From: Schmidtea nova
Lineage: Eukaryota
Direction: 5' to 3'
NCBI GenBank assembly: GCA_044892505.1
Contig: CM097883.1
Coordinates: 258,478,001 to 258,542,000, forward strand
Length of the DNA stretch: 64,000 nucleotides
Positions 13,827 to 16,081 of this stretch are shown here, one piece after another. The notes beneath the pieces were generated by a model. It saw nothing but the letters and a program-made list of their open reading frames with translations, did no database searches and was not told the DNA's origin. Each line of letters opens with the position of its first letter. The stretch's first letter is position 1. The position numbers and the translations under genes were made by a program.

Positions 13827-16081
13827 GACTTTTCCTTCCCCCCTTCACTCGAGTTCTGTTTCCCTTCACCGCCCGAGTTCGTAAAGTGTGAGTGCCTTCT
13901 ATTGTCATTCCTTTCGGAAGCCTTGAAGTTCTTCTGCCCGTACTGCCAATTAGAATCTTTCTCACGCCCAAATCCATACAATATCTCATTTGTCGATCGC
14001 GTAAGATCAGCTTCGTTTTGCAGCCACCTTTTTAACCGGGTTATTGATTCTTCCCCTTCATCTTTCGCTTGCTCTCTTTTCCATCGAATAAGTAGCGCAG
14101 CTGGCAATTTCTTTAACAATTGTTGCAAGAGACAGCCTCTCTGTAAGTCCTCTTCCCTTCCGATTGCTTTAAACCGTACCTCCATTGACTCCAACAATCC
14201 AACGAAAACATCCAAGTCTTTCATCTCTCCTTCGCGAATTGGCCGAAATTTCTCTACGGTCTCTAACATGGTCAGATAACTACGTTCTTCACCTCCGTAC
14301 CGCCTTTCTAATTTCTCTTTCGCCATCTTGTAGCCATCGGCGGTATAACCCAGTGGCTCTATCATTCTCAGTGGCTCTCCTTGCAAGTACTGCCTAAGAT
14401 GCAGCATTTTATCTTCGGCTGTTCCATCTGCCGTATCTATTACCGTATTGAAGGCCGCTTTCCACGTCTCAAACTCGACAACTTTCCCATCGAAAATCGG
14501 AATCTTTATTCTCTGCAACCGATTTAAACTCTTCTTTTCTCTTGGCGCCTCATATTCCGATGTCTTTGACCCCTCGCTCACAACACTTTGTTCTGTTCTT
14601 TTTTGCATTATCTTATCTATCTCTTCTTTTTTTGTTTCGAGCTCACAGATATCTTTTTCCACTAATTCTAACTCCTCCTTCTTGTTTAATTTGTCACACA
14701 ACTCGACAAGTCTTAGCCACTCGTCCAATGTATCCTCAAACTCTTTTTCATATAATACAAGTGTGTCCTTTATTTCCCCGACCATTTCTGCCAACAATAA
14801 GTTACGCGCTCGAGTTACTTTCCATTTTTTAGATCGCCGACGGGTCCATAAACTTTTGAACTCTTCCTCATCATTACCACCTCTTAAACGAAGAACAAGA
14901 TGAAGAGTGGATTCCTTTTGTATGTTGTAATCTGCCAAGATTCTTCCGTCCTCCAATTGTTTACCCGCAAATATCAATCTCTGTTGATCAGGTGGGATTC
15001 CCTCTTTGTCTTGAATTTTCGTTTTTACCTTTTCTATTGTGTCCCTTGATTCAACTTCCAGGGTAATAGTTTTCCCTGTTAACGTTTTTACAAATATTTG
15101 CATTCCCCCTTCCATTCTCAAAACTAGACCGAGAGTTGATTCCTTGGTGGTAATAGCCGTATTTCGATTAATTAACTTACTGATAACGCCGCCCCGAGTT
15201 TCGACACCCAACGAAAGCGGTGTAACATCTAGCAATAATACATCAATCACATACTCAGCAAGAACTCCTCCCTGTATTGCTGCACCCATTGCAACAGATT
15301 CATCTGGATTCACACTCTTACTAGGGACTCTACCGAAAAGTTTCTGTACAGTTTCTTGAACTTGAGGCATTCTTGTCATCTCACCAACTAACAACACTTC
15401 TTTAATGCCCGATATTTTTACCTCTACATCTTTAATACCTTTTTCACAAGGTTCAATTGTTCTCTTAATTAGGTGCTCCACTAATTGCTCTAACTTCGAC
15501 CGTGTGAACCTTAAACTCAACTGTTTAGGTCCTGTATTATCCATCGTCAAATATGGAAGATTAATGTCCGTTTGAACAGCTGATGACAATTCAATTGTAG
15601 CATTTTCAGCTGCTTCTCTAACTCTCTGTAAAGCCAGAGGGTCTTCATTAACATCAACGCCTTGACCACACTTAAATTCATAAAGAATATATTGTAAAAG
15701 CACATTATCAAAACCTTCCCCACCCAAAAACGTATCCCCACTTGTAGATTTTACAGCAAAACTATTATTCAGATTTTTTATATAACTATCTCGCTTTAGC
15801 TTAATGATTTCCCAGTTGAAACACCCATAATTGATTTTAAATCCATAGTTTTTAACCTCTCGCCCTATCTCTCTAATCATCGCTGTATTATACATCATTT
15901 CTTTTGGAACACACCCCTTATTCACACAAGCCCCACCCGTTTTATTTTTTCCAATTAAAGGAACAGATCTCCTAAATCCATCTGTTCTCCTGGCTATTTC
16001 GTCCCCCAATTGAAAAGAATGCTGGGGCCCATAGCAGCATCTTTTCTGGTCCCCTAATGGACCCAACCCACCGCAAAACAT
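13769..16081 (-). CDS. gag: Chimeric ORF1: glutathione reductase fragment - mtHSP70 fragment - ubiquitin tail - ubiquitin - BEL Gag
   Basis: Uninterrupted frame, first ATG at 16081 (frame open to 16201). The Gag part has the BEL-type [21 protein letters not shown]...[13 protein letters not shown] region. Confidence 0.9.
14876..15103 (-). other. Complete 76-aa ubiquitin moiety ending LRLRGG, fused to Gag
   Basis: [76 protein letters not shown]. Six differences from canonical animal ubiquitin (P19S, S20R, N25K, A28T, T55I, S57A). Confidence 0.97.
15143..15760 (-). other. Captured intronless mitochondrial HSP70 (mortalin/HSPA9-type) fragment: NBD lobe II, linker, start of SBD
   Basis: [16 protein letters not shown]...LQRVREAAE...[18 protein letters not shown]...[35 protein letters not shown]. 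Confidence 0.93.
15767..16006 (-). other. Captured glutathione reductase (class-I pyridine nucleotide-disulfide oxidoreductase) fragment
   Basis: [19 protein letters not shown]...YGF...[18 protein letters not shown] parallels GGTCVNVGCVPKKVMWNTA...FNW..IK.KRD.Y; the redox CxxxxC is intact. Confidence 0.85.

Follow-up and report, generated by a model that had tools for sequence, protein, structure and literature searches.

We characterized a retrotransposon of Schmidtea nova that carries a complete ubiquitin directly ahead of Gag, and found that purifying selection acts on this Gag-proximal ubiquitin as it does on Gag itself, but not on the amino acids of the leader in front of it. The ubiquitin probably acts as a cleavage signal for host deubiquitinases (DUBs), which would free Gag or Gag-Pol from a variable leader that is initiated in the long terminal repeat (LTR) and assembled from captured host pieces. 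The observed parts of this reading are a Gag frame that is open from the LTR through the primer-binding site (PBS), the host origin of the leader pieces, the contrast in selection and the origin of an upstream ubiquitin stub from tandem ubiquitin. Ordinarily, neither the LTRs nor the PBS region code for protein, and Gag translation begins at an AUG of its own. In this successful family, Gag maturation appears to have been handed to host deubiquitinases, and the LTR to have become a mosaic of host mRNA that is coding and quickly exchanged.

The element lies on the minus strand of the window, by which we mean the whole stretch of 64,000 nt that was analyzed. One stop-free frame runs there from 16303 to 13769 in the order leader, HSP70 fragment, ubiquitin stub, full ubiquitin and Gag (Table 1), and the letters described in an earlier sequence-only reading of this DNA, with HSP70 passing into an upstream tail LRMEGG, then into a full ubiquitin ending in LRLRGG and then into a Gag starting Asn-DEEEF, were all confirmed. 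Downstream of the DUF1759 Gag come RT, Peptidase_A17, integrase and DUF5641, the order of a BEL/Pao LTR retrotransposon, and sister copies have paired LTRs, a PBS, a polypurine tract and a 5-bp duplication; by its domains and ends the window element is a BEL/Pao LTR retrotransposon. The copy is defective, its frame being broken near 13850, with a stop at 11772-11774 and the 5′ LTR absent at the LTR/PBS border. The stop-free frame at 8552-9321 in its 3′ LTR is the one that sister 5′ LTRs carry through the PBS into leader, ubiquitin and Gag. We take the PBS to be of the initiator-Met tRNA type and the HSP70 fragment to be of the mitochondrial type, and a GGxCVNxGCVPK motif in the leader is presumably glutathione-reductase-like; less decayed versions of this piece occur in other copies, and in one sister copy (L073) it matches Pyr_redox_2 at E=1.5e-4, below the curated cut-off. 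The window copy starts right at the PBS (16296-16301), and after its lone LTR come the 7 initial nt of the PBS region (8549-8555). This layout is like that of a one-LTR circle, circularly permuted and inserted without integrase ends, but a tandem-copy deletion would fit too. The inverted copy inside the leader corresponds to 9596-9621 and could bring the two RNA ends together by pairing or mark an old inverted capture; a 12-nt core matching it was present in 20/20 full copies examined.

Table 1. Features of the BEL/Pao element, in positions of the window.
Feature	Position	Strand	Remarks
Primer-binding site	16281..16298	-	Starts with TGG; Gag reading frame passes through
Inverted copy of polypurine tract and LTR start, 26 nt, inside leader	16092..16117	+	
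Glutathione-reductase-like fragment in leader, decayed	15764..15997	-	Limits approximate
Captured HSP70 fragment	15138..15761	-	Pfam HSP70 E=2.5e-77
Upstream ubiquitin stub, 14 residues	15104..15145	-	
Complete Gag-proximal ubiquitin ending LRLRGG	14876..15103	-	Pfam ubiquitin E=4e-29
Asn codon, first residue of predicted mature Gag in the window's lineage	14873..14875	-	
BEL/Pao Gag, N-terminal part	13772..14875	-	Begins N-DEEEF; DUF1759 about 14066-14494
Zinc knuckles, protease, RT, Pao peptidase/RNase H region, integrase, DUF5641	9591..13844	-	Knuckle and protease motifs by eye
Polypurine tract	9611..9620	-	
3′ LTR, type A	8556..9610	-	AATAAA at 8590-8595

An exact pattern with anchors flanking the upstream tail revealed at least 519 copies of the junction in the 1.25-Gb genome, with 0 control matches, and a pattern for the downstream tail gave 342 exact genome matches, again with 0 in controls. 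These numbers, together with the Pfam E-values, rule out a chance match or an assembly chimera. Most counts given below refer to 80 copies sampled from the first 100 listed of the 519 upstream-tail matches, tandem neighbours and already sampled copies being skipped. Twenty copies taken whole from the 30 nearest to the window are 6-7 kb long and without RT and integrase; the LTR pairs are 99.3-100% identical in 20/20 (2 pairs aligned only in part), and in 19/20 the frame extends over at least 816 codons from ubiquitin onward. Among 17 copies found by RT similarity, 15 have the start motif of ubiquitin before Gag and one more has its second half. Insertion sites favour (ATA)n tracts, and 5-bp target duplications are readable at non-microsatellite sites. 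No gypsy-type ubiquitin-Gag family occurred among the loci obtained with canonical-tail patterns (30 of 101 and 20 of 100 matches), patterns that diverged tails would escape. As for the range of the family beyond the host genome, a Gag-only homologue search had a single match in 4729 candidates, a BEL-type protein that lacks ubiquitin, and the Atlas clusters matching Gag were only DUF1759/Gag clusters, under 0.9; both results are weak evidence. In the non-autonomous copies L031-L050, an acidic filler replaces the RT-integrase region and the frame is still open up to or into the 3′ LTR, which suggests selection for a fully translated RNA (avoidance of nonsense-mediated decay, or cis packaging).

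The ubiquitin of the window differs from host ubiquitin at 5 of 76 residues. Its intact tail, which the sequence-only reading had set against the mutated upstream one, shows no random decay among copies: Gly-Gly ends the downstream unit in 78/80 (the exceptions being one GC and one frameshifted copy), and residue 74 is R in 60, N in 9, C in 8, K in 1 and I in 1. Across in-register copies of five lineages, the Gags of which are down to 23-35% identical, Gly75 was found in 93/93 and Gly76 in 92/93, constancy that is partly by construction since the set was chosen by a G-G or G-C end. Within the window's lineage (55 copies), piN/piS was 0.12 for ubiquitin and 0.02 for its residues 71-76; it was 0.08 and 0.15 for two stretches of Gag (52 and 43 copies kept) and 1.21 for the HSP70 piece (92 codons, 49 copies kept). 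The tested part of the HSP70 fragment is thus neutral at the protein level, and its frame is nonetheless open. Gly75 is encoded by three codon types (23, 22, and 10 of the 55 copies) without amino-acid change. Shared non-synonymous and synonymous changes numbered 9/14 in ubiquitin vs. 35/10 in HSP70 (Fisher p=0.003) and 7/0 in the upstream stub vs. 0/2 in the Gag-proximal tail (p=0.03, a test resting on 7 and 2 changes); these counts come from related, recombining copies and not from independent events, and the p-values are to be read as indications. The retention of all seven lysines and of L8, I44, and V70, which had been pointed out for the window copy, holds for that copy and not for the family. 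K29R occurs in 20/55 copies of the window's own lineage, and other lineages carry K48R/K63N, K63M/I44V/H68F/V70L, or V70A; the lineages differ in residues of the binding surface (K29R, K48R, K63N/M, I44V, H68F, V70L/A). Between lineages, ubiquitin is 66-97% identical. In two young lineages (LTR pairs 98.9-99.8%), residue 74 of the Gag-proximal site is Asn or Cys, and one of these also has I44V/H68F/V70L. No feature is as constant as Gly-Gly, whereas drift affects both the hydrophobic patch and the lysines. A complete ubiquitin with a Gly-Gly end stands directly before Gag and no Pro follows it, the next residues seen being N, G, S, M, V, and K.

Of the upstream unit, a stub of 14 residues is left and the ubiquitin body is gone; in the window copy, this stub carries H68G besides L73M/R74E. 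Residues 71-76 of the stub read LRLGGG in 31, LRLEGG in 22, LRMEGG in 13, LRLGGR in 8, and LSLGGG in 2 of the 80 copies, with four singletons; Arg74 is found in 0/80 and Gly-Gly is lost in 12/80. Among the 30 copies nearest to the window, the stub has MEGG in 17, LEGG in 11 and other endings in 2. The mutated ending MEGG, pointed out earlier for the window copy, is thus not conserved among copies, and a conserved inactivation is ruled out by the frequency of 13/80 and by the free variation of the drifting stub. In the available part of PMC8776766, most DUB classes are described as needing folded ubiquitin, and the few DUBs that accept an RLRGG peptide as acting orders of magnitude slower, ZUFSP enzymes excepted; ahead of the upstream tail no folded body is present, 14 residues being all that is left. 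L73M/R74E is probably not decisive, because the stub lacks a ubiquitin body and because residue 74 varies at the Gag-proximal site of young lineages as well. Of the proposal that the Gag-proximal site alone is cleavable, what stands is that only this tail is conserved like a working site; the two substitutions are probably not what distinguishes it from the other.

A polyubiquitin mRNA had been put forward as the donor of tail and repeat, but neither the stub nor the ubiquitin is closest to host polyubiquitin. The host arrays (3 loci, 10 repeats) are 75-82% identical to the window's ubiquitin, and their tails show 10-16 mismatches in 36 nt to the window stub. The commonest stub type has 3 mismatches to the last 36 nt of the element's own upstream ubiquitin unit (two copies), and some element copies have a ubiquitin unit with an intact tail directly ahead of the Gag-proximal one. 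At the junction, these tandem-unit copies and the host HSP70 gene share 8 identical nucleotides (Lys-Lys-Ser), which bears out the earlier placement of the HSP70 junction within a microhomology; the host HSP70 locus is single and 91.8% identical to the captured fragment over 624 nt. The stub derives from an earlier tandem ubiquitin of the element itself, the body of which was replaced by HSP70, and the tandem ubiquitin may have an older polyubiquitin origin. We infer from these sequences that tandem ubiquitin came first, that HSP70 then replaced the body of the first unit at the microhomology, and that R74G, G74E, and L73M followed in this order. The leaders of other copies contain more ubiquitin units or tails before the glutathione-reductase-like piece, in varying states. 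Upstream ubiquitin units come and go, and the Gag-proximal unit stays. A fusion of HSP70 straight to the intact tail, with the ubiquitin body deleted, was matched once, vs. 519 matches with the body, and shows no amplification.

Upstream of the PBS, the Gag frame is free of stops over 80 codons or more in 62/68 copies (median 158), vs. 0 and 1 of 68 for the other two frames (medians 9 and 19); 12 of the 80 copies are without an exact PBS motif and were left out of these frame tests. Read-through to the LTR is absent in 29/80 copies. The frame is kept by 10/10 PBS-to-ubiquitin lengths seen in at least two copies (p=2e-5) and by 7 of 19 singleton lengths, and 51 of 56 in-phase leaders are stop-free. 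In the window leader, the three frames contain 0, 29, and 49 stops, and 20 out-of-frame ATGs lie ahead of ubiquitin. Since the frame begins in the LTR, the predicted released product would be longer than the GR-HSP70-Ub protein proposed before. The LTR peptides form 25 clusters. At a threshold of E=0.001, 13 of 17 sister-copy LTR peptides match host families, namely HECT (5, one of them also TCP-1), TCP-1 (4 in all, one also DSPn), ABC_membrane_2 (3), enolase and class II tRNA synthetase; the other 4, and the window's own LTR peptide, had no host-family match at this threshold. One common LTR type starts with calmodulin, in the form of 51 nt of 5′ UTR and the ATG followed by exon 2, and is 96-98% identical in this piece to the host locus (L195). 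The intron is absent, so the piece came from a spliced mRNA, and with this capture the Gag frame gains an ATG of host origin. LTRs are alike over their first 50-100 nt and then diverge, and in 57/68 copies A[AT]TAAA precedes the PBS by just over 30-46 nt; this layout suggests that U3 and U5 are short and that R is long and coding. In the LTRs of L085, L093, and L105, a hairpin of ~13 bp at the start is followed by several GCGTCTGTGTGCGC-like repeats within the first 160 nt (window 9385-9590), and hairpin and repeats are candidates for promoter or enhancer elements. The HECT-derived piece in the 3′ part of the LTR (L007-L030, L085, and others) contains tandem in-frame duplications of 114 or 132 nt that are identical in both LTRs.

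If the Gag-proximal ubiquitin is a DUB signal, transcription would start near the 5′ end of the LTR, which fits a long R region, ribosomes would initiate at an AUG in the LTR and translate 450-650 residues of junk leader, and a host DUB would cut after Gly76, yielding Gag (or Gag-Pol) with a fixed N-terminus and a leader-ubiquitin product that is waste. Captures would arise by template switching onto host mRNAs and would persist if the frame is kept. Because the cut fixes the start of Gag, any in-frame, stop-free capture would be tolerated, and such tolerance would explain both the fast turnover of leaders and the decay of upstream ubiquitin units. More tentatively, the LTR could be a replaceable translation-start cassette that samples both 5′ ends and coding pieces of host mRNAs (among them the calmodulin 5′ UTR and AUG, chaperonin, HECT ligase and enolase), with swaps favoured for raising Gag translation or for disguising the RNA from small-RNA silencing and with ubiquitin making the piracy cost-free to the capsid; we regard this extension as possible, if doubtful.

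Asn is a tertiary destabilising residue in the Arg/N-degron pathway, whereas Gly, Ser, and Met are not Arg/N-degrons. The sequence-only reading held that cleavage exposes Asn as a degron that limits the level of Gag, the upstream tail being inactivated so that only one site is cut, and this we consider unlikely. The residue after Gly-Gly is N in 62, S in 9, G in 6, V in 1, and K in 1 of the 80 copies, and Asn is shared by two Gag lineages that are ~35% identical; by eye, the Asn codon is kept in 99 of the first 100 listed junctions. It is no leftover of a donor, since 3/3 host polyubiquitin arrays end Gly-Gly-stop, which rules out an Asn taken over as an extra terminal residue, and Arg74 is found in no HSP70-linked stub. 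The host also encodes an NTAN1-family amidase (PF14736, 116 bits, above the cut-off), a protein that the available part of PMC7356051 assigns to the Arg/N-degron scheme. Against a built-in limit on Gag, Asn is not a trait of the family: a lineage whose Gag is 92% identical to the window's over 150 residues starts with Gly, and others start with Ser or Met. The Gly-start lineage makes up 27 of 30 loci sampled from 101 matches of a tail-plus-non-A pattern, with LTR pairs 96.5-99.8% identical (5 copies with a pair, of 12 sampled); the Ser-start lineage has pairs 99.4-99.8% identical, and the Met-start lineage is older and BEL-like. Moreover, in a set that was chosen by Asn, the Asn codon lacks synonymous variation too, and its constancy may therefore reflect ancestry, and the supposedly inactivated stub, which lacks a ubiquitin body, is free to vary. 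Since the host encodes the NTAN1-family amidase, Asn may act as a degron in the lineages that have it, but such an effect is not what the fusion conserves.

It seems still less likely that ubiquitin stays on Gag as a folded domain that aids trafficking or assembly, or that the element's own protease removes it. Purifying selection on the whole ubiquitin body would fit an uncut folded domain equally well, residue 74 is non-canonical in two young lineages, and the protease region is kept in 4/4 non-autonomous copies whose translation was inspected. However, it is Gly-Gly that is most constant while patch and lysines drift, and every capsid subunit of an uncut protein would bear a variable leader of 450-650 residues. 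In ordinary fusions, host DUBs cut wherever a folded ubiquitin ends in an intact Gly-Gly, and captured ubiquitin in pestiviruses is processed by host hydrolases as well (PMC8310069). Very improbable, finally, is an untranslated leader, in which case ribosomes would begin at Met1 of ubiquitin or use a spliced RNA, the host pieces serving only as RNA or as passive cargo. The ubiquitin ATG is retained, the leader is neutral at the protein level, and splicing stays compatible with an analysis of DNA sequence alone; yet frame and freedom from stops are kept over ~25 LTR leader clusters and all 10 shared leader lengths, the stops of the window leader are distributed 0, 29, and 49 by frame, its 20 out-of-frame ATGs would precede the ubiquitin start, and Met1 is replaced by Ile or Leu in some (older) copies.

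Release of Gag by host DUBs has parallels in known systems. As in host precursors (polyubiquitin, Ub-eS31, Ub-eL40), the arrangement is a linear ubiquitin-X fusion with Gly-Gly at the border, and Gly after Gly-Gly is common to one element lineage (L190) and a host gene that we take to be Ub-eS31-like. Host precursors yield free ubiquitin from Met1, whereas the ubiquitin of the element is internal, follows an N-terminal extension of 450-650 residues and has drifted to 66-97% identity between lineages; because of this position, extension and drift, supply of ubiquitin is an unlikely role for the fusion. In cytopathogenic pestiviruses (BVDV Osloss, CP1, CP Rit), ubiquitin captured from host mRNA sits behind a foreign fragment and host hydrolases make the authentic NS3 N-terminus, according to the available part of PMC8310069, and the insertions comprise one or two ubiquitin copies and are often mosaic (available parts of PMC8310069 and PMC13517609). 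Within what these sources describe, both systems place ubiquitin in a polyprotein behind foreign or host pieces and ahead of the N-terminus of the next protein. There, however, it is sporadic, in an RNA virus and before the NS3 protease, whereas here it is fixed, selected, in an LTR retrotransposon and before Gag, with a leader starting in the LTR; cleavage has been demonstrated in the former and is predicted from sequence in the BEL/Pao family.

Like other BEL/Pao elements, as described in the available part of a survey (PMC3118150), the family has a DUF1759 Gag, RT, Peptidase_A17, rve, and DUF5641 in one polyprotein, TG...CA LTRs and 5-bp duplications; unlike them, it has an N-terminal ubiquitin, coding LTRs and PBS read-through, and the word “ubiquitin” is absent from the main text of that survey. 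The nearest database relative of Gag and the Atlas clusters have DUF1759 only, vs. ubiquitin here. The giant gypsy elements Burro/GYPSM1 also are LTR elements bearing host-like domains, including an internal Ubi2/SUMO-like one (PMC6431247). They belong to another superfamily, however, their polyprotein begins with Gag, and section 7 of that paper gives their SUMO-like domain no cleavage role and no LTR leader. In host-gene transduction by retroviruses and LTR elements, cargo lies downstream of pol or replaces the interior, as far as the available part of PMC6431247 covers it. Such transduction likewise captures pieces of spliced host mRNA in a reverse-transcribing element, but in the family studied here the fragments lie in both LTRs and the 5′ leader, share the Gag frame and are not the same in each copy. 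No description of ubiquitin-Gag LTR elements was found in the literature listings, a scope that excludes Repbase, GyDB, subscription journals and supplements. The selected arrangement is a variation on a known ubiquitin-processing trick, and the main interest is in the LTR-initiated, swappable leader, not in the two tails or the Asn. If both the cleavage and LTR initiation are true, the family would be a natural ubiquitin-fusion system in a retrotransposon and a record of host mRNAs packaged and recombined during reverse transcription. It would also have spread hundreds of host-gene fragments through the genome, which bears on annotation and small-RNA cross-silencing, and its naturally varied Gag N-termini and diverged ubiquitins would serve as a panel on which the rules of DUBs and N-degrons could be examined in an invertebrate.

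Other features were noted around the element in the window. On the plus strand, it adjoins a decayed Polinton/Maverick-like region (16760-28733) with an integrase with chromodomain and fragments of a protein-primed DNA polymerase B, and with ATPase- and capsid-like frames recognized by eye only. On the other side, an 84-codon frame on the minus strand (8274-8528), which we take to resemble a TBP repeat, lies directly against the LTR; 53 nt of this frame (8317-8369) recur inverted at 16389-16441, on the element's opposite side. Two facing, decayed gag-like element copies at 729-7192 form long inverted repeats with 85-94% identity, and transposase frames of the Tc1-like (DDE_3) and pogo/Tc5-like (DDE_1) types are located at 47568-48437 and 55380-56657, respectively.
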